DNA of 39,946 nt. Origin: an uncultured Tepidisphaeraceae bacterium. GTDB lineage: Bacteria; Planctomycetota; Phycisphaerae; Tepidisphaerales; Tepidisphaeraceae. Positions 9,001-22,652 of the stretch are shown one piece after another (positions within the stretch are counted from its first letter, which is position 1; the number at the start of each line of letters is the position of its first letter). The position numbers were made by a program, and so were the translations under genes. The stretch covers positions 1 to 39,946 of the forward strand of contig CAZCKE010000001.1 in assembly GCA_964499005.1 (NCBI GenBank). Direction: 5' to 3'. A model generated the notes under the pieces. The model did not search any database, was not told the origin of the DNA, and saw only the letters and a list, made by a program, of their open reading frames with translations.

Positions 9001-11241
9001 GTTCCTGTTTCAGGCAAGCTGGTCTTCTCCAGCGCTCCGGTCTGGGCGAGCTCGCCGGAGGATGCGATGCGGCGGGCGCTGGTGGCCGATCAAAGCTCCA
9101 TCGTCCTTCCCTCGGGGGACGGCATGGCCCCGTCGATCAACATCCCCTGGCTCGACCCGCGCTATCTGCGGCTGGAGTTCCTGTCGTTCATCGGCAATCC
9201 CGAAGGGGAATCGGGCGTGGACGCTTCCGGCGAATCCGATCTGGACGGGGCGACGGGGCATTTCCGAACGTACATTTCCTACAACAACGACTACTACAAC
9301 TGGACCATCCACCCCTGTCCGAACATCGACATTTACGAGTATTATGAGGGGACGCATCAGGAGAACGGCGTGTGGGTGCCCGACCCGTATACGCCGGCGC
9401 AGCTCGATAGCTTTACGGCGACGGATGGGAATAATTCGGGGAACAGCGTGACGGCAAGTGATGCGAATCCAGTCACGCTATATATTCCAGTAAATTATGG
9501 AGGTCGAGTATCTATTAACCTGTCTGATCAAGCAATTGCTGCATCAGATGGCGATCTCGATGATGTCTTGTGGGATGCTCGTGGAAGCAATAACGCCGTA
9601 ATTTCGTCAGGTACTTTCTCCTCTGGTCCGACAATTACACTCGATGCACCCAGCGAGGGTGACACTATCACGATTGAGGCCGGCGTCGATAGAAGCGGAA
9701 ACGATAAATTGGAAGGAACTGAAGTCACCCGAACAATCAAGGTAGTCTTTCAAAAGTTGATTCTTGCCTGGAATACTTCCGAACAAGAGAATAGCCAATT
9801 ACACGGTTTCGCTCTCGATATTGGGGGCATAACCTCTACACCGAATGAAGTATTCGACCCAACTTTAGCACTCGGTAACCAATCATTGACGATCGACTGG
9901 GGCGATGGATCGCCGGTTGACGATGGTACTGCGCCGCACTTTTTTGATGATGAAGGAGAATATCAAGTACACATTTCAGGTACGGACCCAACCGGTCGTC
10001 AATTCGTCACGTCTTTTTCAATCGATGTCGCTGATCCTGCCGAGCCTGCTGATCCGGTTGAACAGGCATCGCTCGAAAGCGGAGCACTGAGTTGGGATTC
10101 TATAAATGGGGCTGTCCGTTACGACATCTATCAAGGTGCTGATTCAAGCATTGGAGACATGACTTATGTAACCTCCGTTACTTCACCTGGGTATTCAATT
10201 CCAGACAATGGCGGCAATGGAGTCTTCTATTCCATCGTTGCTATCATGCCCGATAACACACAGCAACCTGCTGGTGACATTTTCGCGTCACCTCCGAGCA
10301 CCGCTCCGTCAAATATTGGACCAGCACCGTCGGTGCCGCCGCCATTATTTACTTATGTCGGGGTGGCAACATCAGCACAAAACGGCGCCGCAATCGCAGC
10401 TTTAAAACTACGATATGCAGCAGATCCATCAAACATCAATAATCTGCTAGTGGGAATACATGATGTGACGATTACCGATATCGGAGCTATAGTCGATTTT
10501 AATGGATCCTTTTCTTCCATTGGCAACATAAAAAAGGATGCCGCTGGAAATTATGTTCGCGAGGGAGGTTATGCAACAGCGAGAGCTTGGATGATTAGCA
10601 TGGCAGGTCACCAGCGCACGAACATACAAGATCTGGGAAACGGGACACTTACCGCTAATCTCCAAGATGGTACCAACGTCAAATTGTCTAAAGATGGGGA
10701 TTGGGGAGACGTCCTTATTACCACTTCTGCAGGAGTAGTTACTCCCGTGACATTTGAGAATCCGGTGCGAGAGACAGATTTTAGATTTGCAGGACCAGGT
10801 CAAGGAGCTCAAGGGAATATTGATGTGACGGACTTCATCAATAGTGTATTGATAGAAGAAAAAGATGCAACGGGTTTATTGAACCCATGGAATCTTAAGA
10901 ACCCGGCTGCGCCTGATCCAAAAGTTGCAGATAAGAAGAAAACGGAATTGGCATGGGCGCAAGAAAAGATTTTTAACGATACAAAAGCGCGTCTGTTAAA
11001 ATTGCAGCGAGCCGGGCAGGTCACCTATGCAGAACCTGGGAAATACGTCGGTCCGGTGACACCCCCAACTATTGATAAATACCAAGCTATAACAAAAGTG
11101 GTAATCCGATTTGTCGGTAATCCAGCCACATATGCTAATTGGTCATTTATTATTATAGCCGGCAACCAAGTTGAAGCACTGAATAATGATCCACAGCTAA
11201 AAGCGTACGGATATACGTTCTCAATCCAATGGCCATTTTAG
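1..11241 (+). CDS. Giant secreted/surface repeat protein (5' partial, more than 3,740 aa visible): FN3 array, PKD/Ig-like domains and a variable C-terminal module
   Basis: Frame 1 has no stop from nt 1 up to the TTG at 55 used by the ORF track, so the gene is cut by the window edge. The translation shows about 22-24 FN3-type modules with recurring Y-x-[YF]-R-[VI]-x-A signatures (YYFRIRA, YTYRVQA, YFFRVIA, YYYRIRA, YEYRITA). PKD-type modules carry SNDPDGDSISSW...WGDG motifs. Stop is TAG at 11239-11241. Confidence 0.95.
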   Translation, partial: GSYQVQVSIQDFNGQTSPLSTVALVNYTGATAPTAPTNFAVSAGQTNTTFSWSGGSGTNFSGFMVYGITSSNTVVTLGTTGSSTRSLTIANSSMPSTVVQAFVVAETSTFPVAYSQYSNIAAVRVNSLSVPAAPANLAATLALSSGHAVANLIWDNTSDAELGYYVQRQLHSNPGSWATIATLAADQDSYADTIPDVSKIYDYQIIAFNNKGNSSASNTVTVSCLPTVTLGSIPSATEGSGMTLTSTTSPAISGDSLSYAWSIFDQNGNPYTPSGVALNQSSLTFTPIDSGNWSVSLKATDSTISSGSQIASTTINSGNIPVAVLPPTVTISGSSSYSAGPGGYRLNVSAVYPSNDPDGDSISSWTVNWGDGVPGNPDIVTYTNIVDHIYHPYTTPNPNVTITASATDDDGTYAANLISLTVTPSVSDLSATADTHGAINVRWVYFWPGGHFDIQRSTDGATFTTISSMSADSSTNELLYTDTSGQANTHYYYRIHGTDSAGYNFYTNIASATTAAPGTYGAAPLDTIVVPVDGSSVVSNVTLLAGVHYLLQASGAFFLGGDIGRADAEYSYSPYNNTVIADDANVNYGVDINDTSNDLNKSTWWGPYNTSHVYTIDFIGTGQQLSFNLHDDNYSDNVQDNNPSPLEVQIFAEYPAAPSNLTAQYSVASQQVNLSWTDNAATETGFRIERSTDGQNFSLLQTLNSPSSGIGGTVTAADATAVLGQKYWYRVFAIGPSGFDPNAPSNVAVLSLAGPTVTLGSVPSAAEGSSMTLTSTATAANSSDTLAYAWSIFDAGTLYTPSGVALNQSSLTFTPNDPGNWWATLAVTETQTGATTTASTGTFAVANLPPTVSISGASTVAQSVAYTLSLSAVYPSNDPDGDSISSWQIDWGDGTSSNPDVQTVSGNPSSVTHVYQVQPASGVITATATDDDGTYAANPLHIQVTAPPAVTIVGAPSTSPEGTAITLTGTTSNFPTAPSFLWSVTKDGQAYTSGLGPTNQGSFTFTPNDDGVYVVTLVGTAGSVQASNSQTINVTMVAPTASIIGLTQTITEGNTVYLAAQASDPSSVDAATLQYAWTVTANGNAFASGTAQSFSFTPTDGSVYDVSLTVTDPDGQSTTVTGSTQPIPKAPMTLIAETVASDTINLRWQDESHIEDYYKIEASSDNGNTYAQLGTASVDITHFLATGLNPGTRYLFRVTGIRNGQGTNIATAIASTDPAALTGLTATAVANSDSQIHLTWNAPSGSINPNIEAIQVEYRSNEDFNYTQLQPFSPTTTSTTLTNLDPNTVYYFRIRAWTTPGAYHGPDYLGNNDSVNLSPYSALATATTNNVLPTAPTNVTASATGLPGQIHVTWSGDSTYADGFNVRVSTDGGQSFDPPVVTPGPTTSMVDLNWWDPRQSYVVEVSAFNKVGESTSTVSGSVTPTAMGAVGSLQASPVSNHQIQLSWAYTPAPSSNSYFPTFIIQASVEGGPFATIWTTNGTSYNDINLTAGTSYTYRVQAQYNGGFSDYSASATAITTNALPLDLSNPSLSDTLSFGVLSFGYTAPTDLNRDGINVEISTDGVNYAPATLPVSFFGAPNSIVGLEPGTTYYVRAYAYNSVGRSDYLYFNPVATHAVTSPTMISASTPTASIGYPQANSNTQLALQWNYSPTPGTSEPQSFEIQQLAQGDSDYHDAGTLQNFNPSNNIVTTLIKNLTPGVSYQYRVRAVYADYYKTNWSDASAPVSTTALLPSMPSNLSATPSGSTQAIFNWNSSSLVTDAFSVQISSDGTNFTDAGTTLFVPNASTFGIPVQGLAPSTTYFLRVQAFNSVGVSGWTDAVSVTTGPASSGNAPIVPVAPSATTLDSAIAVNPGEIDLQWTSVDRATAYLAEISSDDTTFTPIGQTSGTSYAARGLTISTHYFFRVIASNAGGDAPPSNVLDATTPPYAAPANLTATPVSQTQISLAWTETNTDESGFRVEESTDGLTYAPVNQVSHPPTTTPSDMRAYLVQGLNPGQLYYFRVRTVGPGNAYVSDVSNVASAAPFAVAQAAQPTGLTVTVLSNSEIRVRWNDNANNEDHYSVVLYWNGGLDIPNETDGSEENTIYDMREVASDVNDVVIDDLQGDTLYEARVHATNYAGASVVSDMVEVQTLPDPPTGLAAVATSPTTVHVSWNQVLSSSGYHLQRSLDGQNWTSVGPATITDTSYDDTNVGANYLYRISTTMPDGDSPFSAAAAISEPSITDFSANNVTTSEIDLAWTPLSSASSYEIERSTGNNFMWTLLATVDGSASSYADTNLITGTSYYYRIRARNAIASSAYTNISAITMLPTPINLAGSVSATSASLSWISSESAVTYLIQQQINGIWQTVSSVFNTNQATFGGSFAPSTVYNFRVSARSGGASSDFSDSLAVTSPDFAPTPSGFTASNPSFTSIDLSWAASAGAQDQFILERSSNGGAFSTIAVLDGSTSAFTDSGLADGTSYTYRLSASNSAGRSGFTVLSATTALDVPIHFAASSVTSSAITLTWQAANANAAYNLFQSTDDITWQPLSQQSQFARSFVVTGAYPPGTPYYFRIQASLSGMLSATVDLSGTTPAYPQKPAGISLTNVGMTGVSISWTPGSSDATQFQVQRGIFANFWQTLATVDGSVTSYFDNSVAHNTSYSYRIIAVNAFGQSIPGNSASIVTPLVAPAALAVTSVSGHETDLSWALPSEALSGLDIYRSTSASSLGTVIASIGTTDTTYSDSGPFNSNATYYYTVVAKSGSVSAASASVAVTTGNFPQTPTNVTLVNGNSEYRLNLAWSAVAGASSYTIYRRTVSTQWTFINTVDGSVQSPGYSDSGLDPGRAYEYRITASNAAGESGYSTVAALATSLIDPASPDGLTITADPNDGTVLNLTWTNHAGDQSGFEVQSAEWGATNFAMNDIYSSSVTIGPSATSYQATGLVSGQTYFFRVRAIRPDGPSDWSNEAYGITADPQQFGGQYAAAPGIVGGAPLPGPSGFLHQYVVTVNGNDVYNFVPTADVPVSGKLVFSSAPVWASSPEDAMRRALVADQSSIVLPSGDGMAPSINIPWLDPRYLRLEFLSFIGNPEGESGVDASGESDLDGATGHFRTYISYNNDYYNWTIHPCPNIDIYEYYEGTHQENGVWVPDPYTPAQLDSFTATDGNNSGNSVTASDANPVTLYIPVNYGGRVSINLSDQAIAASDGDLDDVLWDARGSNNAVISSGTFSSGPTITLDAPSEGDTITIEAGVDRSGNDKLEGTEVTRTIKVVFQKLILAWNTSEQENSQLHGFALDIGGITSTPNEVFDPTLALGNQSLTIDWGDGSPVDDGTAPHFFDDEGEYQVHISGTDPTGRQFVTSFSIDVADPAEPADPVEQASLESGALSWDSINGAVRYDIYQGADSSIGDMTYVTSVTSPGYSIPDNGGNGVFYSIVAIMPDNTQQPAGDIFASPPSTAPSNIGPAPSVPPPLFTYVGVATSAQNGAAIAALKLRYAADPSNINNLLVGIHDVTITDIGAIVDFNGSFSSIGNIKKDAAGNYVREGGYATARAWMISMAGHQRTNIQDLGNGTLTANLQDGTNVKLSKDGDWGDVLITTSAGVVTPVTFENPVRETDFRFAGPGQGAQGNIDVTDFINSVLIEEKDATGLLNPWNLKNPAAPDPKVADKKKTELAWAQEKIFNDTKARLLKLQRAGQVTYAEPGKYVGPVTPPTIDKYQAITKVVIRFVGNPATYANWSFIIIAGNQVEALNNDPQLKAYGYTFSIQWPF
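670..1269 (+). repeat. Internal segmental duplication, copy A (pair of PKD/Ig-like domains)
   Basis: Encodes LPTVTLGSIPSATEGSGMTLTS...YAWSIFD...ALNQSSLTFTP...PPTVTISG...VYPSNDPDGDSISSWTVNWGDG...ATDDDGTYAAN, collinear with copy B. Shared nucleotide runs include gcctggtcgatcttcgat and gacagcatcagctcatgg. Confidence 0.85.
2260..2832 (+). repeat. Internal segmental duplication, copy B (pair of PKD/Ig-like domains)
   Basis: Encodes GPTVTLGSVPSAAEGSSMTLTS...YAWSIFD...ALNQSSLTFTP...PPTVSISG...VYPSNDPDGDSISSWQIDWGDG...ATDDDGTYAAN, collinear with 670-1269. Confidence 0.85.
3370..8840 (+). repeat. Uninterrupted array of about 20 diverged FN3-type modules (protein-level repeats of roughly 90-100 aa) inside the giant CDS
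   Basis: Each unit has an 'L(T/S)A...(I/L)xLxW' start and a 'Y(Y/F)(F/Y)R(V/I)xAxN..G.S..S' end. Units are diverged at nucleotide level, so this is not a simple tandem DNA repeat. Confidence 0.8.
8950..9047 (+). repeat. Junction segment of the giant gene that recurs at 15333-15430
   Basis: gtcgtcaccgtcaacggcaacgacgtctat...ccggtctgggcg (VVTVNGNDVYNFVPTADVPVSGKLVFSSAPVWA) aligns without gaps to 15333-15430. About four fifths of the bases look identical by eye. Confidence 0.85.
9406..9750 (+). repeat. Conserved roughly 115-aa Ig-like 'pre-tip' module of the giant gene (AT-rich version), homologous to 12183-12518
   Basis: DSFTATDGNNSGNSVTAS...[17 protein letters not shown]...SSGTFSSGPTITL...EAGVDRSGNDKLEGTEVTRTI aligns with the start of the 12117 ORF. 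About half the residues are identical by eye, including long identical runs. Synonymous positions differ strongly (A/T here, G/C there). Confidence 0.85.
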
Positions 11242-11643: not shown

Positions 11644-12108
11644 ATGATTACGACCAAGTTACGTAATATCGCGCGATCCTTGGTGAATTTGAGCTTTGGC
11701 ACACTTAGCGCCATATCGCTGTGCATAGTGATAGTGTTGGTTGTTATTCGTCTTAGTGGACGAACATGGACTTACTCGATGCCTCTAGCAACAACTCCGC
11801 AGGCATATCACCTTAACTCGTCCGTAGATGTCGAAGTCAATTATTCTGGCGGTATAGCCATCGAGCAAGATTACCTACCCCACATATTTGGCAGAAGGAT
11901 CCCATATTTCGCGGCTATCGTTTTCACAACAATTGTCCCGATTCTTTACGCGATTTTTTACTGGTATCGCGCGCGCGAGAGAAGATATCGCCTTGCAAGT
12001 AAAGTTTGCGCCATTTGCGGCTACGACCTCCGCGCTACCCCAGACCGCTGTCCGGAATGCGGCGCCATTCCCAAAAGCTCCATCAAGCCATCTCTGCCCA
12101 TGTTTTGA
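11644..12108 (+). CDS. Two-pass membrane protein with C-terminal CxxC...CxxC zinc ribbon ([19 protein letters not shown])
   Basis: Two hydrophobic spans (about aa 14-36 and 86-108) flank a roughly 50-aa loop. A basic stretch (RARERRYR) and a 4-Cys ribbon follow. It has the same architecture as 14693-15328 and a nearly identical C-terminal 30 aa. Confidence 0.75.
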
Positions 12109-12116
12109 TTGGCGGT

Positions 12117-14696
12117 ATGGTAAAAAATCTCATCCGCGCATTGCGGCCAATCCTGAGCGTCGATCTGACGGCGCCAGAGACGGATAGCTTGACGGGAACA
12201 GATAGCACCAATTCAAATAATAGCGTGACGGCGGAAGGAACGCAGGAGCTGTACGTGCTGGTGAATGCCAATGGGAACGCGACGGTGAAGTTCTCGGACA
12301 GTGCGATCGCGGCTTCGGACGGGGACACCGATGACGTGCTGTGGCGCGTATTGCAGGGCAATACGACCATCGGCTCGGGGACGTTCTCCAGCGGGGCGAC
12401 TATCACGCTCAATCCGGCAACCCAGGGAACGGAGTTCATCGCCGAGGCGGGCGTGGACATGTCGGGCAATGACAAGCTGGAAGAGCCGGAGGTGACCGAG
12501 ACGATTCGGATTCACCTCACGCATTTCGGCGGCATCACCGCATTTCGTACCGATGGGAAATTTGGTCAGGCTGTCACACGAGCTATTCAACAGACCAATG
12601 ATCCGACGAAATACGTCGTACTTGTCAACGACAACTTTGACCAAACGCTTGATCAGAGCCAAGCGGACAACGCGTTACCTACAGCACCGATTCAAAATGA
12701 TCAGATGCAACTCGATCAAAACGGTAATCCGCTCGATCCTGACTTTGGACACATTACGCTGCACCAGCTCCCGCAGGGGTTCATTGGCGGAACAGTAACT
12801 TTGCTACTATCCGACCCAAGTGCGGTAAAGCTCTTTGATAAAAATGGCCAGGCGCTCACCTCCGGCGATCTGACCCTCAATCTGTCAAATCCCAGCGGCT
12901 ATCTTGCTGGCCTGTTGTCAGGCGACGTAGATATCTGGTTTGAGGGGATGCACACGAGTCCAGATTTCAGTTTCACGATTTCCTATAATGAGCCTGCGGT
13001 AAGCCAATATTCCCAAGATGTGGTGCATCTGCTCATCGCCGACTGGCAGTTCGTCGGCTCCGATGGCAATCGGCTCACCAACGATGTCTCTACAGTTTCC
13101 GAGGAAACGTTGACGGATGAAGCTAACGGCAATCTGGATTCACCGACTATTCCTAACGAAGACAAGTTCAAAGTTCTTTTAGACGGCTTGCCCAGCACCG
13201 CACTCCAATCGCTTCAATTCAACTCAATATCGGGCCCAACGGACAGCTTCCTAGACACATTTTCGGGGACTTCATCCTCAACCTCATCGAATAATTTCAC
13301 GGTGATGTATGGTGTTCCCGATGGTTTAAGTCAGTTTTCGACGAGCCAGCGGAGCTCCATTTTAAGTGCCCTCGGAGTTAACGCCATTGCCGCGAATACA
13401 GTTCGAGTAATCGCGCAATTGGCGAATGATGTTTTACAACAGGAGATCAAAGCTGACCCCATGCGCGTAACATTTGTCAGCGGAGAAGATCCAACGGATG
13501 GGACTATTGAAACAAGGAGATCAATTGACAATAACGAGCCCTTTTACATGAAGGGCTATATGCTGGAACTGGAAGTCAACAATAAAGTCGGCACTCAGGT
13601 CCAATGGTCATTTCAGAAGATAGGGCATGGCAACCAGGATTTCGGGGCTTTTTATGACGGCCATGATTGGGTGGATTATGCGGATAACCACAAATTGAAC
13701 GCCAAACCGACGGATGGCCTCGTAAATTGGCGATCTGACTTTGATGCTAACGGCGATATCAATGATGAATATTCCATTACGGCCAAATACACCAAGCCGG
13801 ATGGCACGCCGGGATTCTCGACTCTTCATTTAAAGAGCCGGCTTCTGGACCCAAATGACCCCAACGCCAGTGCGAAATACCACACCGACGCGGATATGGC
13901 GCAGAGAGCGCTCATCCAGGATTTCGGCCTCGACAAAGGGCGATTAAGCTCTTATCGCATCGGACAATATGATAAGGGCTCCCAAAATGGCTGGTACGTG
14001 TCGTCGCGGCAGATGAATGTGCGTCAATGGTCCGCTATCGCAGACGAGGTCTCGAATTTCCGCCATTTCGCGCTCAACAAGGCATTTGATCCGACGCTTC
14101 TTCTGGACACAGTTACGGGCATTTGGAATGAGTTTTCCAAGATTCTTGCCGCACCACTCCCTAATAAAGTGGACCAGAATAACGCACAATTCGGAAATTG
14201 GATCACTCAGGCATTAACGGCCAGCGGACTTACGGCACCAAATGGAGCGTCCGTGACCAGTGAACAAATCTTGCGGGCTTTGATCACGCATGAGAGCGGA
14301 GGAACGCATTCCTATGATTTGCAAGCGCCGCTTGCCGCTAACTACATTCAGGTCGGGACACAAAACAACGGAGCTGGGGCCAATTTGCACCAATTAACTG
14401 ACTGGGGGCTTGGCTTCGCGAAAGTCCAACCATATAACGACAATGGCTTGAATCTGTATGACCCCTATCAAAATATCTTACGTGGAGCACAAATGTTCGC
14501 GGCTGCCCTTGCAAACCAGGGAATAAATGAAGTGGGAGACAATAGGATCTGGATGGCCTATTACTACTATAATTCGGGGCACATCGAAAATGGGTCAATA
14601 GATGGCGCGGGAGGAGCTCGTGCAGTAAATAGATTCGGTGCCGCAGATCACGCCGACGCTTTCTTTAGTGCTTTAGGGCTTCAGCCTCCCCAATGA
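12117..14696 (+). CDS. Orphan C-terminal module of the giant-protein family (about 859 aa): conserved Ig-like pre-tip module, unknown middle, lytic-transglycosylase (SLT/lysozyme-like) C-terminus
   Basis: The ORF-track start at 12006 overlaps the preceding gene. The first in-frame ATG after that gene's stop is 12117. The N-terminus has no signal peptide and aligns to aa about 3118-3232 of the giant protein. The C-terminus carries SLT-type motifs in order: LITHESGG (catalytic E-S), [33 protein letters not shown]. The stop overlaps the next start (caATGAac). Confidence 0.8.
12183..12518 (+). repeat. Conserved Ig-like pre-tip module, GC-rich copy (homolog of 9406-9750)
   Basis: [18 protein letters not shown]...[17 protein letters not shown]...[13 protein letters not shown]...[21 protein letters not shown]. 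Similarity to the giant protein stops right after this block. Confidence 0.85.
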
Positions 14697-15328
14697 ACGT
14701 ACCAACGAACCAAAAATGGAAACGACGATTTACGCGAACGGCACTTATTCTCGATATAGTTCTCTTGCTTTCTGCCGTTACAGCTTGGACGATTAGCAAT
14801 TTTTTCGCCTTCGGTATAATACAGCGAGAGTACGAAATATCTGTTGCTAAAAATTCTCTATTCGATGACGATGGCAATGAATTCGTTTCTCGCTATCGCG
14901 GCTTGGATGTCTCCATGGGGGTCATCATATACTTTGTTTACATTGATCGACTGTCATTAACGCACGTTCCGAGCGACACCAAGCTGCAGGTTTCCGGAAC
15001 CCATTTCGTGCTTGATAAAAGACGCAATTCGCCAAGCCTACTCAGAAAAGGCATTTTGGGGATCGAAGTACGTAATGAACCACCGCATCAAGCAGGACAG
15101 CTCGGCAGTATCGGCTCCTCATTATTGATTTGCGTGCCGTTGTGGTTTTTCTGCATTCTTTTTAGCGTGTGGCCATTACGAATTTTGGTCGGGTTCGTGC
15201 GTCGCCGCGACTACGCCGCCATTCGCTGCGAGACTTGCGGTTACGACCTGCGCGCCACTCCTGATCGTTGTCCGGAGTGCGGCGCTGTTCCCGAACATCC
15301 AATCAAACCCTCATCGTCGATAACTTGA
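14693..15328 (+). CDS. Two-pass membrane protein with C-terminal zinc ribbon ([19 protein letters not shown]); candidate immunity partner of the SLT-like orphan module
   Basis: ATGA start/stop overlap with the upstream module. TM1 is about aa 16-42, followed by a roughly 100-aa loop and TM2 at about aa 141-170, then RRRDY and a 4-Cys ribbon. The C-terminal 30 aa nearly match those of 11644-12108 (DNA 15227-15316 versus 12007-12096). Confidence 0.75.
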
Positions 15329-15332
15329 TTGA

Positions 15333-15443
15333 GTCGTGACCGTCAACGGCACCGACGTCTACCACTTCTTCCCCGATGCCACCGTTCCCGTTTCGGGCAC
15401 GCTGGTTTTCTCCAGCGATCCGGTCTGGCGTAGTGTAAAATAA
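15333..15443 (+). pseudogene. Third orphan fragment of the giant-gene junction region, truncated by IS insertion
   Basis: It starts 5 nt after the previous stop and encodes VVTVNGTDVYHFFPDATVPVSGTLVFSSDPVW, homologous to 8950-9047. Homology ends at about 15430, where the sequence runs into tgtaaaataattc (IS end) and a stop at 15441-15443. Confidence 0.8.
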
Positions 15444-16707
15444 TTCATCCGCGTCTCATGCGGCCTCCTTGTAATAGAATTTCAGCAGTCCACCCAACCG
15501 TTCCCGGCACTGCACCGGTCCATCGCGAGGATAATCAGTGTCGGTGAGCGCGGGAAACAGGAGCCGATTCTGCTTACCTTGATGCGGCCGCTCGGAATGG
15601 TAATGCTCGATGTACTGCGTGACGGCGTGGCGCAGGGGCGCTTCGCCGAAGAAGATCATCCGGTCCAGGCACTCCGATTTGATCGAGCGGACAAAACGCT
15701 CCGCGAACGCATTGAGATTGGGACTTTGCGGCGGCAGAGCCAGCGGCTCAATGCCGGCGGCGCGGAAGATCATGTCAAAGCCACTGGAGAATTTCGTATC
15801 CCGGTCGTGCAGAAGATATCGGCAGCGGGAGAGCAGATCGCAGCCGCTCATGGTGAGGTTGCGTGCTGCCTGCTTCATCCACGCGTTGGTGGGATTGGCG
15901 GTGATGCCGCCGAAATAAACTTTGCGGCTGGCGACGTGTATGAAGAACAGGACGTAATACGTGACCAACCCGCAGGCGGTCCAGACTTCGGTGGTGAAAA
16001 AGTCCGTGGCCAGCAGACAATCGGCGTGGGACTTGATGAAGTCGGACCAGTCGGTCTTCCTTTTTCGCATCGGCACCGGGTCGATGCCATGTTCTTCGAG
16101 GATGTTTTTGACGGTCTGATGGCTGAGTCCATGGCCGATGGCAGCCAGCGCGCCGGTGATCCGCCGATAACCCCAAGCTGGATTTTCGTTGGCCAATCGG
16201 AGGACTTGCATCACGGCGGCCGGATCGGTCGGCGGCCGACCGGGGACGGCGGCTGCCCGGCGGTCGGAGGTGTCGAACTTTCGGGCCACGAGTTGCCGAT
16301 GCCAACGAAGGATCGTATCCGGCGTGACGATGGAGGCGACGTCCTGGAGGAGTTTGCGGCCGAGCTTCTTGCCGATCGTGGCCAGTGTGGCGCGTTGGGC
16401 GTCGTTCAATCGCCGTCGGCCGGAGAGTTGATCGCGGAGGATTTTGTTCTCGGCGGTCAGGTATTCGATTTTCAATTGAAGCTGATGGTCAATGCGGCCG
16501 GCGACCCAGGCGAGGATTTTTTCCCAGCCCGTGGAATGGGATTGAGGCATCGGGTGAATGTAACGGTGTCGGCGGGATTCTAAAAAGAGAGATCGGCAGG
16601 AAAACCGCCAAGAGATTTTGGGGCAGATTTGGGGCAAAACGGCCTCCAGAAACAGTCCAGAGGCAGTTCAACGCCAGTTCGCACTCAGTTCATAAGTCCC
16701 GTTTACA
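15431..16707 (-). mobile_element. Insertion sequence with single rve/DDE transposase (IS481-like); boundaries approximate
   Basis: The left boundary is where homology to the giant gene breaks (about 15430), followed by TGTAAA. The proposed right end is the complementary TTTACA at 16702-16707. The terminal inverted repeat is weak beyond 6 nt and I found no target-site duplication. Confidence 0.55.
15456..16550 (-). CDS. DDE transposase / integrase core (rve) domain protein with N-terminal HTH region
   Basis: rve-type landmarks in order: LLATDFF (D), LLHDRDTKF (D), NAFAERFVRSIKSE (E), then YNSERPHQG-like HYHSERPHQG. I prefer the ATG at 16550 (MPQSHSTGWEK). The ORF track extends to 16637 with an implausible Cys/Arg-rich leader. 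Confidence 0.9.
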   Translation of the reverse strand: MPQSHSTGWEKILAWVAGRIDHQLQLKIEYLTAENKILRDQLSGRRRLNDAQRATLATIGKKLGRKLLQDVASIVTPDTILRWHRQLVARKFDTSDRRAAAVPGRPPTDPAAVMQVLRLANENPAWGYRRITGALAAIGHGLSHQTVKNILEEHGIDPVPMRKRKTDWSDFIKSHADCLLATDFFTTEVWTACGLVTYYVLFFIHVASRKVYFGGITANPTNAWMKQAARNLTMSGCDLLSRCRYLLHDRDTKFSSGFDMIFRAAGIEPLALPPQSPNLNAFAERFVRSIKSECLDRMIFFGEAPLRHAVTQYIEHYHSERPHQGKQNRLLFPALTDTDYPRDGPVQCRERLGGLLKFYYKEAA

Positions 16708-16895
16708 AGGGCGTTAAGGCTCGATTTTTAGGTAATAGCGAAGGTTCCGACCTTGGTTCGGGACCAAGAGGTCGTAAAACGATACTCACCATCATCACAC
16801 CGCAATCATTTGCGTAGTTGTCGCGAACGGCCACAAAAGTTGCTGTCATGTGGCCGACCTGGATAGATTCCCTCCACCCATCTGCCAAGGAACAC

Positions 16896-17654
16896 ATGTC
16901 AGACGCAACGAACTCCGTGGCCCGGCGCGCCAAGCCCACCGAACTCCTCTCCCACTGGCCCAAACTGATCGAGAACCTCAGCTTCTCTCCGCAGGAGTTC
17001 TACTCGCGTATCGAAAAAGCCCTGGCCGACCGTCAGGTTCCCGACCTGCAAACCTCACGAGTGGATTGGAAGGAAGGCGGCGTGCTTTCGGCCCGCCGCG
17101 AATACCTGCGCCTCCAGCGCGAGCGGCTGATCTTCGACATCTGCGGCGCTCCCTTCGGCACCGGTTTTTTCGTCTCAATCTGGTGCGGCGAGCGGCCCTT
17201 GAGGCTGGGGCACCTGATCCGAGCCCTGATCTTGGTGGGAAGCGGAGCGGTGACGTGGTTTGGGATACTGCAATTCACGCCCCGCTCCACGTTTTATGAA
17301 ATGCGGCGCATGGGCATCGATCCGGGACATGCGCTCATCGCCATCACGGCCGCCGTCGTCCTGGTGGCCACCTTCCTGATCGTGCTGCTGGGCCCCAGGC
17401 TCGATAACATCCTGATCCACACGCCTGTGATCGGATACTTCTACGAGCGCTACTTCCGAAAACTCACCTACTACCGCGTGGACCGGATGTGCATGTATCA
17501 ACAGGCTGTGCATGCGGCGGTCATGCAAATCATCGACGAGATCACCAAATCCCAGGGCATCCAACCCCTCTCGGAACTGGAACGCCGGCCGATCACCAGA
17601 GAACCGGTCATGAGGGAACTGTTCCAGCAAGCCGGTTCCAATGGGCACGGCTGA
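16896..17654 (+). CDS. Hypothetical membrane protein (about 252 aa from ATG 16896; ORF open from 16818)
   Basis: A soluble N-terminal roughly 100 aa (SFSPQEFYSRIEKALADRQVPDL...) is followed by 2-3 hydrophobic spans (GFFVSIWCG, LILVGSGAVTWFGILQF, ALIAITAAVVLVATFLIVLLGP) and a roughly 90-aa tail. Its stop overlaps the next gene by 14 nt (ATGGGCACGGCTGA). Start codon is uncertain (16818 TTG, 16848 ATG or 16896 ATG). Confidence 0.7.
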   Translation: MSDATNSVARRAKPTELLSHWPKLIENLSFSPQEFYSRIEKALADRQVPDLQTSRVDWKEGGVLSARREYLRLQRERLIFDICGAPFGTGFFVSIWCGERPLRLGHLIRALILVGSGAVTWFGILQFTPRSTFYEMRRMGIDPGHALIAITAAVVLVATFLIVLLGPRLDNILIHTPVIGYFYERYFRKLTYYRVDRMCMYQQAVHAAVMQIIDEITKSQGIQPLSELERRPITREPVMRELFQQAGSNGHG

Positions 17655-20600
17655 ACCTCCGGCAACTTCAGTTCTCTCTCCAGCCCAACAGCTTGCCCAG
17701 CAATTCTATGATTGGGAACTGCGGGGAAGGGGATGGCTAATGTGGGATCGTCCGGTGGAACCGGAGCCGCCCTTTCAACCTTTTTTCGATCATGTCATCG
17801 CGCCCGTCGATGGCGACGACGGCAGGAAACACACCCTCCTCAGCGGTCTGATCGATTGGCTGCACCAAAAGGTCACGGGTCAGGGAAATAATACCTCTGC
17901 ACAGACAATCGAAGAATCGCCAGGGGAATTCGAGCCGATCGAACTCGCCGAGCCTTCCGATTTGGTGGAGCTGAGGATATCGCTTCCCCAGAACCTGGAC
18001 GTATCCCAAGAAGCCGCCGAGCAATTCCTGCTGAGCCTATCGACCGTCCGCCGCCCGGTTGCGTTTGAATTGATCGGATTGCCCGAGACGATGATCGTGC
18101 AATTCGCCTGCGAAGGGGATGATGCCGCTCATCTGGAGCAACAATTGAGAGCCATCTTTCCCGACGTAACCGTCAGTGTCCACGCCGGTCTTCTACAAGA
18201 GTACTGGCAGGAGCCAGAGAATGCCGAAACGGTCATCGCCGAATTCGGCCTCGCCCGCGAATTCATGCTGCCCCTGGCGATGCCCGGATTCTCCGTTGAT
18301 CCACTGACCGGCATCGCCGGCGCCCTGGTGGATGTGCGGGAAGATGAAATCGCCCTCCTGCAAATCCTGTTTCAACCCGTCCGGCACCCTTGGGCCCAAA
18401 GCGTGCTGCGCTCCGTCACGTTCTCCGATGGCACGCCCCTATTCGAGGGCATGCGGGATTTTGTCAAACAGGGCAGAAACAAAGTCTCTCGGCCTCTGTA
18501 CGGCGCGGTCATTCGCGCCTGTTGCCAAAGCCCCGAGGGCAGCCGGACTTGGGATATGGTGCGACATGTCTCAGGAGCACTGTCGGTACTTTCGGACGCC
18601 CAAGGCAATGAACTGATCCCGCTTGATAACGACAATTACGACCCGACCGATCATGAGCACGATGTCCTCTTTCGCCGCAGCCGCCGCTGCGGGATGCTTC
18701 TCAACAGCGAGGAGCTGACCTCACTGGTTCATCTCCCCTCGGCCTCCGTTCGCATTCCCAAGCTGCGCGGACAAGCGAAGAAAACAAAACCCGTCCCGCC
18801 GATGGTCCTGGGCCATCAAACGGTACTGGGGATCAATGAGCATGCCGGACGATCCCAGTCGGTGACAATGAGCCCCGACCAACGCTCGAAGCACCTGCAC
18901 CTCATCGGCGCCTCGGGAACCGGCAAATCCACCCTTCTCTTAAACCTCATTATCCAAGACATCAACAAGGGCGATGGTGTTGCCGTCCTCGATCCCCACG
19001 GTGATCTAGTGGATGCGGTCTTGCAACGAATCCCTCCCCAGCGGAGAGGGGATGTAGTGCTCTTTGATCCGGGGGATGAGGACTATCCGGTCGGGTTCAA
19101 CATCCTCTCCGCCCACTCGGAACTTGAGAAAAATCTGCTCTCCTCCGACCTGGTCGCCGTCTTTCGCCGCTTCTCCACCAGTTGGGGCGACCAAATGAAC
19201 GCCGTCTTGGGCAACGCGATCATCGCTTTCCTGGAAAGCGAGCGGGGAGGGACTTTGGTGGACCTGAGGCGGTTCCTGGTCGAAGCCAAGTTCCGCAAAG
19301 AGTTCCTCTCCAGCGTCCGCGACCCGGAAATCGTCTACTACTGGGCGAAGGAGTTCCCGCTCCTGAGCGGCCGGGCTCAGGCTCCGGTTTTAACCCGCTT
19401 GGATGCCTTCCTGCGCCCCAAGCTGATCCGCTACATGGTGGGCCAAAAGCAGAGCAAGCTGGATTTAGGCCAGGTCATGGACAATGGGGGTATTCTCCTG
19501 GCCCGCCTGTCCCACGGAGCGATCGGCGAAGAAAATGCCCAACTGCTGGGCACGATGCTCGTTTCCAAGCTCCATCAGATGGCACTGGGCCGCCAGCGGA
19601 TTGCGGAGACGGATCGCAAATACTTCTGGCTCTACATCGATGAATTCCAGAACTTCGCGACGCCATCGATGGCGGCGATTCTCACGGGAGCACGGAAGTA
19701 TCGCCTGGGGCTTGTTCCGGCCCATCAGGAGCTTCACCAGTTGACCAGCAAGACACCGGAGGTCGCCAGCGCGGTGATGTCCAACGCTTTCACGCGCGTC
19801 TGCTTCCGGCTGGGGGATGAGGATGCCAAAAAGCTTGCCGGCGGTTTTGCCTCCTTTGAGCCTATTGATTTACAGAACCTCTCGACAGGCGAGGCGATCT
19901 GTCGGGTGGAACGGGCGGAGTTGGACTTTAATCTTCGCACATTGCCTCTGGCGCCAGTCGATGAGCAAACGGCGGCGACCGCGCGACAAGAGGCAATCAC
20001 TGCCTCTCGCCAGAGATATGCCGTCCCGCGCGCCAACGTTGAAGCAGAACTATGCCGCTCGCCCGGGGATGAGGAAGCTGGGGTACAAGAAGCGAAGGTT
20101 TGGGAAAAGCCAGATCAGAATGTGGATATCAAGCTTCCCGAGCCGGTCTTGGCTCCGCCATCTACACCCGTCGGACCCAAGCCCGTCCCTCGTCCGCAAA
20201 AAGTTACCAGCGATGTCATGATCGAGCCGCCACCCCAAGGCCGGGGCGGACCCGAGCACAAATACCTCCAGCAATTGATTAAACAGTATGCCGAGGGCCT
20301 GGGGTTCAAAGCCTCCATCGAGGAAAACATCCTCGGCGGAAAGGGCGTGGATGTTGCTTTGACCAAATGCGACACCTCCATCGCCTGCGAAATCTGCATC
20401 ACGACGGACGATGCTCATGAATTGGGGAATGTGCAGAAGTGCCTCACAGCCGGCTACAAGCATGTTGCGGTCATCAGCCCCAGCGCCAATCGATTGAAGA
20501 GTCTTGAGAAAGCGATTAGCCCCCAATTGGCGGATGACCAGAGATCGCGTGTGAAGTTCTTTGCACCCGAGGAATTGCTGCGGTTCATCCAACAGTTGGA

Positions 20601-20760
20601 AGTCCAGCAATTGACCCAGGAGAAGATCGTGCGGGGCTACAAGATCAAAACCAGCTTCAAGGTCATGGATGAAGCGGACGGGGACATTCGCCGGCAGGCC
20701 GTTTCTCAGACGGTGGCCAAGGCGATCAAGCGTTTGCAGGATCGCAAGGCCAAGAAATAA
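17641..20760 (+). CDS. Large P-loop NTPase of the TraD/VirD4/TraG-HerA/FtsK type (1039 aa) with unknown roughly 400-aa N-domain and possible PD-(D/E)xK-like C-terminal domain
   Basis: Walker A GASGTGKST at 18907-18933. Walker B hhhhDE in FWLYIDEFQNF at about 19624-19653, followed by RKYRLGLVPAHQELHQL (coupling-protein/TraG-D_C-like Q-x-x-x-QL). After a Pro-rich linker comes GRGGPEHKYL...GVDVAL...IACEICITT...NVQKCL (20233-20505), which resembles a restriction-endonuclease-fold core. Confidence 0.85.
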   Translation: MGTAEPPATSVLSPAQQLAQQFYDWELRGRGWLMWDRPVEPEPPFQPFFDHVIAPVDGDDGRKHTLLSGLIDWLHQKVTGQGNNTSAQTIEESPGEFEPIELAEPSDLVELRISLPQNLDVSQEAAEQFLLSLSTVRRPVAFELIGLPETMIVQFACEGDDAAHLEQQLRAIFPDVTVSVHAGLLQEYWQEPENAETVIAEFGLAREFMLPLAMPGFSVDPLTGIAGALVDVREDEIALLQILFQPVRHPWAQSVLRSVTFSDGTPLFEGMRDFVKQGRNKVSRPLYGAVIRACCQSPEGSRTWDMVRHVSGALSVLSDAQGNELIPLDNDNYDPTDHEHDVLFRRSRRCGMLLNSEELTSLVHLPSASVRIPKLRGQAKKTKPVPPMVLGHQTVLGINEHAGRSQSVTMSPDQRSKHLHLIGASGTGKSTLLLNLIIQDINKGDGVAVLDPHGDLVDAVLQRIPPQRRGDVVLFDPGDEDYPVGFNILSAHSELEKNLLSSDLVAVFRRFSTSWGDQMNAVLGNAIIAFLESERGGTLVDLRRFLVEAKFRKEFLSSVRDPEIVYYWAKEFPLLSGRAQAPVLTRLDAFLRPKLIRYMVGQKQSKLDLGQVMDNGGILLARLSHGAIGEENAQLLGTMLVSKLHQMALGRQRIAETDRKYFWLYIDEFQNFATPSMAAILTGARKYRLGLVPAHQELHQLTSKTPEVASAVMSNAFTRVCFRLGDEDAKKLAGGFASFEPIDLQNLSTGEAICRVERAELDFNLRTLPLAPVDEQTAATARQEAITASRQRYAVPRANVEAELCRSPGDEEAGVQEAKVWEKPDQNVDIKLPEPVLAPPSTPVGPKPVPRPQKVTSDVMIEPPPQGRGGPEHKYLQQLIKQYAEGLGFKASIEENILGGKGVDVALTKCDTSIACEICITTDDAHELGNVQKCLTAGYKHVAVISPSANRLKSLEKAISPQLADDQRSRVKFFAPEELLRFIQQLEVQQLTQEKIVRGYKIKTSFKVMDEADGDIRRQAVSQTVAKAIKRLQDRKAKK

Positions 20761-20801: not shown

Positions 20802-20853
20802 TGGCATCTGGAATGCCAATCTGCAAAATGGCAACGCAATGGAGGTGTTGCCA
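20802..20853 (+). promoter_or_regulatory. Two adjacent TGGCA/TGCCA inverted repeats immediately upstream of (and touching) the recombinase start codon
   Basis: TGGCAT-ctgga-ATGCCA (20802-20818) and TGGCAAC-gcaatggaggt-GTTGCCA (20829-20853, ending in the ATG). This could be an operator, a recombinase site or a translation-occluding hairpin. The first also has sigma54-like GG/GC spacing. Confidence 0.3.
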
Positions 20854-22652
20854 TGAGGAAAAGCGAATCGATTGCAGTGAAGAAGCCGGTGGGCATCTGG
20901 ATTCGGGTCTCGACGGAGGACCAGGCCAAAGGGGACAGCCCGGAGCATCACGAGCGCCGTGCCCGCTTTTACGCGGAATCCAAAGGATGGGAAGTGGGTG
21001 AGGTCTATCACCTCGATGGCTTTAGCGGCAAAACGGTCTGGGACAATCCCCAAACCCAGCAGATGCTCAAGGACATCAAACAGGGGAAGATCACGGGGCT
21101 GATCTTTTCCAAGCTCGCCCGATTGGCCCGCAATACGCGGGAGCTGCTGGACTTTGCCGACCGATTCCGTGAGGCGGATGCGGATTTGATCTCGTTACAG
21201 GAGTCGATTGATACCTCCACCCCCGCCGGCCGTCTGTTCTACACCATGATCGCGGCGATGGCCCAATGGGAGAGGGAAGAGATCGCGGATCGGGTATCGG
21301 CGTCGATCAACATCCGGGCCAAGCTGGGGAAGCCCCTCAATGGCAAGTCTCCCTTTGGCTATCACTGGGTGGACAAGAGGCTAGTGCCGCATACGCAGGA
21401 AGCTCCGGTTCGGAAGCTAATCTATGACCTCTACCTGGAATACCGCCGCAAGAAGCGGGTGGCCAAGGTTCTCAATGAGCGGGGGTATCGGACACGGGAG
21501 GGGAATCGCTGGAGCGATACGAGTATCGACAGGCTTCTACGCGATCCGACGGCGAAGGGGATGAGACGGGCGAACTTTACGACCAATGGCGATTCCAAGA
21601 TGCTCAAACCCGAAAGTGAATGGATATGGACGGAGGTCGAGCCCATCGTCACGGAGGAGACTTGGGAACAGTGCAATAAGATGCTCGATGAGCGGATGGA
21701 ATCACTGCGGCGGAAGGGAAGGCGGCCGGTACATCTCTTTGCGGGCCTAACCCACTGTTACTGCGGCAACAAGATGTACGTCATCACCAAATCGCCCAAG
21801 TACGTCTGTCAAAAGTGCCGCAACAAGATACCCGTTGTCGATTTGGAAGCGATCTTCTGTGAGCAGCTCAAAGCTTTCTTCCTTTCGCCTGCCGAAGTGG
21901 CAGAGCATCTGAAAAAGGCGGATGAGCATCTGGGGGAAAAGGAAAAGCTCCTTCAAAGCCTCCAGGAGAAGCACTCCCAGCTCCAGGGGGAGATTCAGCG
22001 TGTGTATCAGCTCTATGTGGATAAGAAGATCGATGGGGATGGATTCAGCCAGTTCTATAAGCCTCTGGAGGAGCGGAAGCGGCAGATGGACGAAGAGCTG
22101 CCAAGGCTTCAGGCGGAGGTCGATCTGTTGAAGATCAACCATATCTCCTCGGATCAAGTCCTGACCGAAGCCAAGGATTTGCACTCGCGCTGGCCATCGC
22201 TGACAGTCGAGGAGAAGCAACGGATCGTGGAAAGCGTGACGGAGAAGATTATCATCGGCACAGACGAAGTGAACATAACCCTTTGCCACCTGCCCTCTTC
22301 CGAAGAAGTAACAAAATGGCAACGCAGCCTGCCTGATGGGTTCGCTCCCGCCTCCCTCGGTCTGCGCGTTTCGCATTTTCAAAAACTCGCCCAAACACAT
22401 CCGAACTGCCAGATTCATTCACGACGCGCAAAAGTTCAACTTCCCCAAAACCCACGCCGGCATCTAATGCCAAACCTCTCGCTTCACCTTCCATGCCTCT
22501 CGACCGCGCGCTTATTTTGCGCTCCAGTGCGCTCCCAGTCGCCCGATTCCGTTCAGTTAACACCCCTTTTTCCGACTTCATCACGTGCCCACCCTCGATA
22601 TTCCCCAGAAAACAAGCCCCAAGTTTGTTGGTTTGAAAACAGACCCCATTAA
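20853..22652 (+). CDS. Large serine recombinase (resolvase/invertase N-domain, recombinase domain, zinc ribbon, coiled coil); the last roughly 106 codons are doubtful
   Basis: VGIWIRVSTEDQ holds the catalytic Ser. Also present are LIFSKLARLARN, SLQESIDTSTPAGRLFYTMIAAMAQWERE, Cys pairs CYCGNKMYV...CQKCRNK and a long coiled coil. The family-like sequence ends around ...VNITLCHLPSSEE (about 22330). The remainder to 22652 is Pro/Ser/His-rich low complexity in a G-poor tract. Confidence 0.9.
   Translation: MRKSESIAVKKPVGIWIRVSTEDQAKGDSPEHHERRARFYAESKGWEVGEVYHLDGFSGKTVWDNPQTQQMLKDIKQGKITGLIFSKLARLARNTRELLDFADRFREADADLISLQESIDTSTPAGRLFYTMIAAMAQWEREEIADRVSASINIRAKLGKPLNGKSPFGYHWVDKRLVPHTQEAPVRKLIYDLYLEYRRKKRVAKVLNERGYRTREGNRWSDTSIDRLLRDPTAKGMRRANFTTNGDSKMLKPESEWIWTEVEPIVTEETWEQCNKMLDERMESLRRKGRRPVHLFAGLTHCYCGNKMYVITKSPKYVCQKCRNKIPVVDLEAIFCEQLKAFFLSPAEVAEHLKKADEHLGEKEKLLQSLQEKHSQLQGEIQRVYQLYVDKKIDGDGFSQFYKPLEERKRQMDEELPRLQAEVDLLKINHISSDQVLTEAKDLHSRWPSLTVEEKQRIVESVTEKIIIGTDEVNITLCHLPSSEEVTKWQRSLPDGFAPASLGLRVSHFQKLAQTHPNCQIHSRRAKVQLPQNPRRHLMPNLSLHLPCLSTARLFCAPVRSQSPDSVQLTPLFPTSSRAHPRYSPENKPQVCWFENRPH

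Follow-up and report, generated by a model that had tools for sequence, protein, structure and literature searches.

A membrane-protein and motor-nuclease gene pair beside the recombinase of integrative islands: a tentative case for mobilisation, weighed against defence

What does a coupling-protein-like ATPase do when it is encoded between a small membrane protein and a large serine recombinase, with no conjugation machinery around it? This question is raised by a stretch of 39,946 nt from an uncultured Tepidisphaeraceae bacterium (GenBank assembly GCA_964499005.1, contig CAZCKE010000001.1; the whole stretch is hereafter called the window), in which an earlier, sequence-only reading had singled out two overlapping genes as a candidate defence or minimal DNA-translocation module. 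The anatomy described there stands, while the choice between the two functions is not one that computation can decide. Here we show that the pair is widespread and previously undescribed, although all of its parts come from known superfamilies, and that the recombinase is no incidental neighbour, but marks the end of a family of integrative islands of which the pair is a part. Our literature searches on its N-terminal domain family DUF8128, on fusions of type IV coupling proteins (T4CPs) with nucleases, and on comM- or serine-recombinase-associated islands found no description of it. As for its function, we lean tentatively, and with something short of even confidence, towards a backbone module of these islands that cuts and pumps the island's own DNA, thereby allowing mobilisation that depends on a helper element.

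Both open reading frames (ORFs) were confirmed on the + strand: the small partner gene at 16818..17654 (278 aa when counted from the TTG at 16818), and the large gene at 17641..20760 (1039 aa). They overlap by 14 nt, ATGGGCACGGCTGA, identical to the overlap that was first reported. The gene caller places both starts later, at ATG 16896 for the small gene (252 aa, P0121) and at M34 for the large one (1006 aa, P0001). The overlapping ATG is nevertheless likely to be the start of the large gene, since the alignment with homologues sets in near residue 18, at the invariant motif FYxWExRGRGW, and no further in-frame start lies between 17641 and that motif. For the small gene, ATG 16896 and a product of 252 aa are the likely choice. 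In 63 other loci, the two genes are most commonly spaced by -4, -1 or +3 nt.

How far does this arrangement extend beyond the window? The large protein has more than 4,300 matches at 50-61% identity, almost all of 1,000-1,090 aa, and a profile search with DUF8128 returned 2,902 clusters at 50% identity, with an essentially single architecture among the best 150 of these. We scanned one genome per species, resulting in 80 loci that were viewed within +/-10 kb, from Acidobacteriota, Verrucomicrobiota, Planctomycetota, Bacteroidota, Gemmatimonadota, Desulfobacterota, Binatia, Eisenbacteria and others; a stricter ORF selection left 73 loci with a full-length large gene. In 76 of 78 loci, drawn from many phyla, ORF clustering placed the small gene, for which 530 homologues were detected, immediately before the large one and in the same orientation, so the pairing is far beyond chance. 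Thus the check that the sequence-only reading had proposed, whether both genes recur together elsewhere, shows them to be a syntenic unit. One metagenome-assembled genome (Bacteroidetes bacterium 46-16; L023, L048 and L066) holds three copies of the large gene with 75-90% mutual identity, and in two loci (L105 and L107) the large gene is split into ORFs of 659 and 391 aa by a 238-aa ORF on the opposite strand, probably an insertion. Plasmid and phage origins were both considered and appear unlikely: PLSDB holds no full-length copy, 2.9 million IMG/VR contigs hold two, and phage genomes show partial matches only, at ~20-24% identity.

The three-part layout with a coupling-protein-like core that was originally proposed for the large protein was read correctly. 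An N-domain at residues 1-405 (17641..18855, + strand throughout) is followed by a P-loop ATPase core at residues ~406-770 (18856..19950), a Pro-rich linker at residues ~771-865 (19951..20235) that varies in length and sequence in the homologue alignment, and a C-terminal domain at residues ~866-960 that ends in a basic helical tail (20236..20757). The motifs that had been named are all present, with Walker A (GASGTGKST) at nt 18907-18933, the D667/E668 of Walker B (YIDEF) at nt 19639-19644, and AHQELHQL. K429, D667, E668, R685, K686 and R719 are conserved at 100% in 83 full-length homologues.

Judged by its profile matches, the core is of the TrwB/TraD class of hexameric motors, in the VirD4/VirB4 branch. 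Pfam TrwB_AAD_bind matches at 42.2 bits (E 6e-11; cut-off 20.5) and TraG-D_C at 25.8 bits (cut-off 22). The cut-offs of the NCBIfam T4CP models are not reached, with SXT_TraD at E 1.6e-12 and 46.7 bits against a cut-off of 366, and TraD_Ftype at 17.5 against 521 bits; overall, TrwB/TraD profiles match at E 1e-11 to 1e-12. The best profile of all is PADLOC mad8, from the MADS anti-phage system (E 4.7e-19), and PADLOC HerA reaches E 7.7e-4, over 50 residues only. The coupling-protein half of the original 'coupling-protein/HerA-like' label therefore holds, but HerA-type defence systems are not the closest relatives (about 8e-4 for HerA against 5e-19 for mad8). Compared with PDB sequences, the core matches TrwB at E 7e-7, and DotL, DptH and HerA more weakly. 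VirB4 models gave no assignment (TIGR00929 at 15.8 against 643 bits; no match to Pfam CagE_TrbE_VirB). When aligned by hhalign with a VirB4 alignment, residues 401-741 fall on residues 427-728 of TrwK (E 5e-5), and the motor therefore begins at the same place in both proteins.

Could the large protein then be an ordinary coupling protein that serves a complete conjugative element with distant type IV secretion system (T4SS) genes, or a decaying remnant of such an element? The database name of its homologues, 'type IV secretion system DNA-binding domain-containing protein', would suit this, as would the two Pfam matches above their cut-offs and the insertion sequence (IS) directly upstream of the pair in the window. 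The T4CPs TrwB, VirD4 and TraD do have a homologous ATPase core and are, like the pair, borne on mobile elements. However, the 1039-aa protein has no hydrophobic segment and hence not the N-terminal transmembrane anchor of T4CPs, in place of which the pair has a separate protein with two transmembrane segments, plus the 400-aa DUF8128; its best NCBIfam T4CP score, as given above, is 46.7 against 366 bits. As the sequence-only reading had stated, no relaxase, T4SS, pilus or replication gene is found within the 40-kb window, so that neither a T4SS nor a recognised relaxase lies beside the pair, and its flanks are free of transfer genes for 16.8 kb upstream and 19 kb downstream. In other loci, housekeeping genes occur within 10 kb upstream. 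Nor is the pair always embedded in complete conjugation gene sets, the finding by which that reading had said it could be overturned: no T4SS-like ORF cluster recurs within +/-10 kb in the 80 loci, no T4SS family is among those listed by Pfam scans for 225 non-redundant upstream ORFs, and the full-length protein is absent from PLSDB. The genes are, moreover, intact and conserved. As such, we consider an ordinary or decaying coupling protein highly improbable.

Precomputed Pfam records of homologues place the N-domain, which had been called unassignable, in DUF8128 (PF26449), and its fold may be VirB4-N-domain-like; that it forms a distinct domain of about 400 aa was correct. The AlphaFold2 (AF2) model of this domain has a pLDDT of 82, and its best PDB fold matches by Foldseek are the TrwK/VirB4 chains of the R388 T4SS (E 2.5e-5, TMq 0.36-0.41, ~370 columns). 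Since the query was devoid of the ATPase domain, and the top 50 matches contain neither an entry of the VirB4 C-terminal domain only nor any other P-loop motor, the match appears to be to the VirB4 N-domain. This resemblance is suggestive only. The best viral fold matches are proteins of the Bacillus phages Slash, G (gp156) and JL (E 4e-16).

The small protein was taken for a membrane protein from the outset, and residues 133-151 and 165-200 of the 278-aa ORF (~nt 17214-17270 and 17310-17417) indeed form two hydrophobic segments. Its conserved N-terminal and C-terminal soluble segments flank a poorly conserved hairpin of two transmembrane segments, and, judging by the alignment, the protein may be a cytoplasmic domain into which a membrane hairpin is inserted. 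Neither Pfam, nor all PDB sequences, nor the PADLOC models gave a match to it.

Together, both proteins recall VirB3 and VirB4, where a small protein with two transmembrane segments is likewise encoded immediately upstream of, and overlapping, a large ATPase (PMC12624023), in which an N-domain of ~400 aa is followed by a TrwB-like ATPase from about residue 400-430, as in the large protein here. VirB3 anchors VirB4 to the membrane through its two transmembrane helices (PMC12624023). The small protein, however, is twice as large as VirB3, with soluble segments that are conserved, the pair adds a nuclease, neither the N-domain nor the small protein shows sequence likeness to its counterpart, and no other mating-pair formation genes are present. 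Still, the possibly VirB4-like fold of the N-domain, the upstream partner with two transmembrane segments, and the fact that no T4SS gene family recurs in 80 loci raise the thought of a minimal transfer machine that works without a helper, in which a VirB3-like anchor and a VirB4/VirD4-like motor would move island DNA by themselves, comparable to Streptomyces TraB or archaeal Ced. Against this, the named hosts are nearly all from diderm phyla (Acidobacteriota, Verrucomicrobiota, Planctomycetota, Bacteroidota, Gemmatimonadota), and two proteins crossing two membranes as well as the recipient envelope would be without precedent. Furthermore, no pilin and no VirB6-, VirB8-, VirB9- or VirB10-like partner is conserved. 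We therefore regard this machine as highly improbable.

The extra domain that had been noticed behind the Pro-rich linker is present, and can now be assigned: it is confidently modelled as a member of the PD-(D/E)xK nuclease superfamily, with catalysis predicted. Its AF2 model (pLDDT 87) has an alpha-beta-beta-beta-alpha-beta topology over residues ~866-960, and Foldseek matches it to R.BspD6I small subunit, Bax1, EcoT38I and Can2 (E 1e-3 to 1e-2), the top matches with probabilities of 0.99-1.0; PaqCI is also among its restriction-endonuclease neighbours. H873, E894 and D904 are conserved in 83 of 83 homologues, E927 in 82, E917 in 81 and K933 in 79, in line with the conserved acidic residues that this core carries on strands 2 and 3. 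In some homologues (P0032, P0070, P0088, P0095, P0117 and P0118) an AlpA/excisionase-type helix-turn-helix (HTH) domain, HTH_17, is found, which in P0088 takes the place of the C-terminal tail after the nuclease domain.

So where does a nuclease follow a motor of this kind? One distant relative, a DUF87 protein of 913 aa, is encoded on a 65-kb plasmid of Bacillus subtilis and aligns with residues 192-804 of the large protein (blastp, 22% identity, E 7.5e-27); it has no transmembrane segment. Directly after its gene comes a 'replication-relaxation' gene and, beyond this, conjugation genes of TcpE-like and VirB4-like type. ORF201 of phage 0305phi8-36 is a similar distant relative, followed by an overlapping ORF200 that matches Replic_Relax weakly (E 6e-5; 23.6 bits, just under the Pfam cut-off of 25.3). 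Pathria et al. linked ORF200 to MobC, the MOBC relaxase of CloDF13, by HHpred at E 4e-22, and termed these phage genes a 'DNA translocation operon', which is non-essential under laboratory conditions, its deletion having no phenotype there (PMC3357382). MOBC relaxases are known to be PD-(D/E)xK enzymes, and a covalent DNA intermediate has not been seen for them (PMC12857230). The gene order of these relatives, a motor and then a PD-(D/E)xK nuclease, thus equals the domain order of the window protein. These DUF87/ORF201-type translocases have part of the N-domain and the ATPase in common with it, lack transmembrane segments as it does, and are followed by a gene of a PD-(D/E)xK relaxase family; they differ in that this nuclease is a separate gene with an N-terminal winged HTH, that no homologue of the small membrane protein adjoins them, and that their hosts are Bacillota and the phages of these. 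CloDF13 MobB with its MOBC relaxase MobC likewise ties a PD-(D/E)xK nuclease to a motor (PMC12857230), but in the pair the nuclease is fused, and has no detectable sequence relation to Replic_Relax/MOBC.

The sequence-only reading placed an IS to the left of the pair and a large serine recombinase to its right, and the domains found agree with this. The recombinase ORF (20853..22652, + strand) has Resolvase (PF00239, E 4.5e-33) and Recombinase (PF07508, E 2.4e-21) domains, a weak Zn_ribbon_recom and the catalytic motif RVSTEDQ, and is CcrB/CcrC/XisF-like by NCBIfam. In relatives, the recombinase ORF ends a few codons past a QxxL motif, where it meets a fragment of comM (Mg-chelatase-like), which in more than 50 loci invariably breaks off at ...MNP, with the CPCG codons due to come next. 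This precise site recurs across phyla (L001, L002, L018, L035, L046, L050, L100, L105 and more than 40 others). Four loci (L054, L020, L042 and L070) carry the C-terminal comM fragment on the recombinase side, which places the island in the opposite orientation. Two further islands lie in tRNA genes: the recombinase C-terminus GWDSNPR is an antisense tRNA T-arm (L015 13379-14881 and L079 13391-14929). From these junctions it follows that the recombinase gene abuts the att site, and that the window ORF reaches the right end of its island. Homology of the window recombinase ends at about residue 505 (nt ~22367) of an ORF of 599 aa, and the real protein probably has ~505 aa, with the remaining ~95 codons (22368-22652) read through into flanking DNA; the right att junction would then fall within 22330..22400 (no strand), a position inferred only from the end of recombinase homology. 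No comM fragment, tRNA or Rfam match was found at this junction, nor were convincing terminal inverted repeats found for the window island. On the left, the IS transposase (15456..16637, - strand; rve_3 and HTH_32) lies outside the module and is the leftmost possible island limit in the window. Since an orphan piece of a giant surface-protein gene ends at 15428, at the edge of the IS, the left limit of the island would lie between 15428 and 16896, and the window island may be little more than three genes. Close relatives are built in a similar way, with a PLD-family gene or a 615-aa gene without assigned function, then the pair, then the recombinase.

Is the pair part of the island's backbone, or just one of its cargoes? 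Within the 73 loci, a serine recombinase follows directly downstream in 23 (median gap 90 nt), and some recombinase lies within 10 kb in 40. A metagenome scan, this time anchored on the recombinase, returned 80 loci at 57-70% identity, in which the ATPase was by far the commonest non-recombinase family, clustering in 33 of 80; it lies directly upstream of the recombinase in ~40% of the loci with enough upstream DNA. Where the pair occurs, no other gene set lies nearer to the recombinase, with which it shares its strand, and variable cargo, such as type I restriction-modification (R-M) genes, lies further upstream; where the pair is absent, cargo abuts the recombinase directly, mostly on the opposite strand. 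Because of this positioning, the pair fits a backbone module better than cargo. Moreover, pairwise identities of the ATPase and the recombinase co-vary (Spearman 0.43, Mantel p 0.001), to which shared host phylogeny could contribute. The 225 upstream ORFs mentioned above are a heterogeneous cargo (methyltransferases, MmeI, AbiEii-like, IrrE-like) and even include housekeeping genes, which means that some islands must be small.

The company of the pair also has a conjugative side: at least one conjugation-associated gene (ArdC, RadC, primase, a core-only T4CP-like paralogue, or Replic_Relax) is found in 30 of 73 loci, with RadC, ArdC, primase or Replic_Relax in 18, a core-only ATPase paralogue of ~400-500 aa in 21, and a paralogue-small-large operon in 10. 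This paralogue either adjoins a MOBC-like Replic_Relax gene with primase, ArdC and RadC, or directly precedes the small gene as a three-gene operon. It was seen in the upstream 10 kb of L015, L019, L024, L034 and L065, and further in L016, L027, L037, L038, L044, L046, L052, L058, L061 and L074. In verrucomicrobial loci, the large gene and the recombinase are separated by an antisense gene for a conserved HTH protein of 77-84 aa, likely a local regulator (L014 10730-10963, L015 13061-13297, L025 6381-6635, L035, L064 and L079; minus strand). An excisionase-like small ORF between the large gene and the recombinase was not found.

How, then, could such a module work? For helper-dependent mobilisation, the small protein would tether the motor to the inner membrane via DUF8128, as VirB3 does for VirB4. 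The recombinase would excise the island, after which the fused nuclease would cut or nick island DNA, standing in for the separately encoded MOBC/Replic_Relax relaxase of the distant relatives, and the motor would pass this DNA on to the transfer channel of a conjugative element resident in the same cell. Together the three genes would then form a minimal mobilisable, or 'hitcher', island. We favour mobilisation because of the position of the pair beside the recombinase, its frequency there, its apparent co-inheritance with it, the distant relatives, the MOBC precedent, the conjugation-associated company, the stability of the architecture together with the strong conservation of both active sites, the HTH fusions, and the copy number.

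It should be noted, however, that several observations weigh against mobilisation. The fold match of the N-domain to VirB4 is moderate (TM ~0.4), and FAD-linked oxidase folds score almost as well; hhalign of the large protein with VirB4, using either TrwK alone or a 17-member alignment, aligns only the ATPase cores. The small protein shows no sequence similarity to VirB3/TrwM. The C-terminal domain has no Pfam match to PF13814, and comparisons by hmmsearch and hhalign with phage ORF200, six-frame CloDF13 and the Replic_Relax proteins of the loci gave nothing; its fold neighbours are generic restriction-type nucleases, and its agreement with MOBC/Replic_Relax is one of fold class and of gene/domain order only. 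A conserved oriT-like feature was not found. The pair is also carried by islands that have a T4CP-like ATPase and Replic_Relax of their own, where it would be redundant, and it is missing from ~60% of sister islands, and thus is dispensable for integration. Finally, the antisense HTH gene of verrucomicrobial loci implies that the large gene and the recombinase gene are not generally co-transcribed.

The main rival is a defence or exclusion module borne by the island, a two-gene system working by itself, in which the tethered motor would load on incoming phage, plasmid or rival-island DNA, to be destroyed by its six fused restriction-type nuclease domains. The best profile for the core is Mad8, and mad8 is required for MADS defence (bioRxiv 10.1101/2023.03.30.534895); DptH, from the Dnd restriction system, matches weakly in the PDB, and the nearest nuclease folds are restriction enzymes and the CRISPR-ancillary Can2. 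In sister islands, type I, II and III R-M genes occupy the equivalent position: a good share of what adjoins the recombinase in pair-less islands is R-M (type I/II/III methyltransferases, ResIII), along with Peptidase_M78 and a ligase. Among the neighbours of close relatives are a nuclease of the PLD family, an OLD-like ATPase and type I R-M. Furthermore, relatives occur in lytic Bacillus phages, which do not conjugate, and the two proteins are predicted to hold every activity needed, which fits their persistence in islands as tiny as that of the window.

On the other hand, a fixed position and orientation beside the recombinase, with cargo further upstream, is at odds with defence, as is an invariant architecture with little domain shuffling over ~2,900 clusters, since defence effectors usually vary more. 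Among the upstream ORFs, neither a methyltransferase nor any other partner for telling self from non-self accompanies the pair consistently. Beyond the mad8 core match there is no significant PADLOC match, HerA reaching only 8e-4 and the small protein none. Mad8 of MADS and DptH of DndFGH are T4CP-like motor ATPases used in defence, but the likeness is limited to the ATPase core: neither has DUF8128, a fused nuclease or a membrane partner, and the seven other mad genes and dptFG are absent here. For the eight-gene mad1-8 operon in particular, the window holds no other mad gene, no methylase and no kinase. SIR2-HerA, DUF4297-HerA and HerA-NurA also combine a hexameric motor of the FtsK/HerA superfamily with a nuclease-type effector; there the effector is separate, whereas that of the pair is fused, and its core belongs to the VirD4/VirB4 branch. 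The sequence-only reading had remarked that the pair exactly fits neither the HerA-effector systems nor the FtsK-like translocases of actinomycetes, and this largely holds, given the marginal HerA match, the lack of a SIR2 or DUF4297 effector gene adjoining the pair in the window, and the lack of a Pfam match of the window protein to the FtsK_SpoIIIE motor domain. Taken together, we consider defence possible, and somewhat less likely than mobilisation, with a smaller share of probability left for roles of another kind.

As for the islands themselves, these resemble the SCC-type and comM-targeting islands in having a CcrB/CcrC/XisF-like recombinase at the island end and in their site-specific insertion. 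SCC elements, however, carry a helicase/primase module where the islands of the pair have a T4CP-like motor-nuclease, and, unlike in the comM-targeting islands, the insertion site in the window is neither comM nor a tRNA.

Elsewhere, the window encodes an FN3 surface protein of 3728 aa, LOG, GNAT, an exopolysaccharide cluster and two proteins without assignment. The surface-protein gene shares a 97-nt direct repeat (83.5% identical; 8950-9045 and 15333-15428) with the region left of the IS: one copy lies inside the FN3 gene and the other just past the gene of a 211-aa protein, where it is truncated by the IS, and both encode in frame the peptide VVTVNG.DVY..VPVSG.LVFSS..PVW. GC content falls from 0.63 to 0.45-0.55 between ~9 and 15 kb, and within this low-GC stretch, downstream of the giant gene, an 896-aa protein without Pfam match (12006-14696) overlaps by 4 nt the gene of the 211-aa membrane protein (14693-15328), which has a C-terminal zinc ribbon. 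It looks as if the C-terminal cassette of the giant surface-protein gene was replaced, leaving an orphan module behind. The stretch that separates the IS from the small gene contains phased direct repeats of 11 bp (TYCNNNNNCAG, 16645-16699), four to five in number, which give 22 of 33 self-matches at period 11, against at most 17 in shuffles. These could be part of the IS end or a protein-binding array; as a conserved binding site upstream of the small gene they were not found in 75 other loci. Promoter and terminator scans were uninformative.

What would this mean for the islands and their hosts? For most genomic islands, no route of transfer is known, and the majority of the phyla in question here are poorly studied. 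A conserved two-gene module beside the recombinase of thousands of islands is therefore a concrete candidate under either of the two leading readings. If these three genes were to form a self-transmissible island that needs no helper and uses a restriction-fold 'relaxase', this would be a very small, new class of mobile element in soil and sediment phyla. If defence is the true function, the pair would represent a motor-nuclease system of a new, membrane-tethered kind, its engine derived from conjugation. If mobilisation is, it would be a one-polypeptide device that explains the spread of three- to five-gene islands between phyla. Whether mobilisation or defence applies, Pfam DUF8128 gains a function-level lead, and a recombinase clade that targets one precise comM site is documented.

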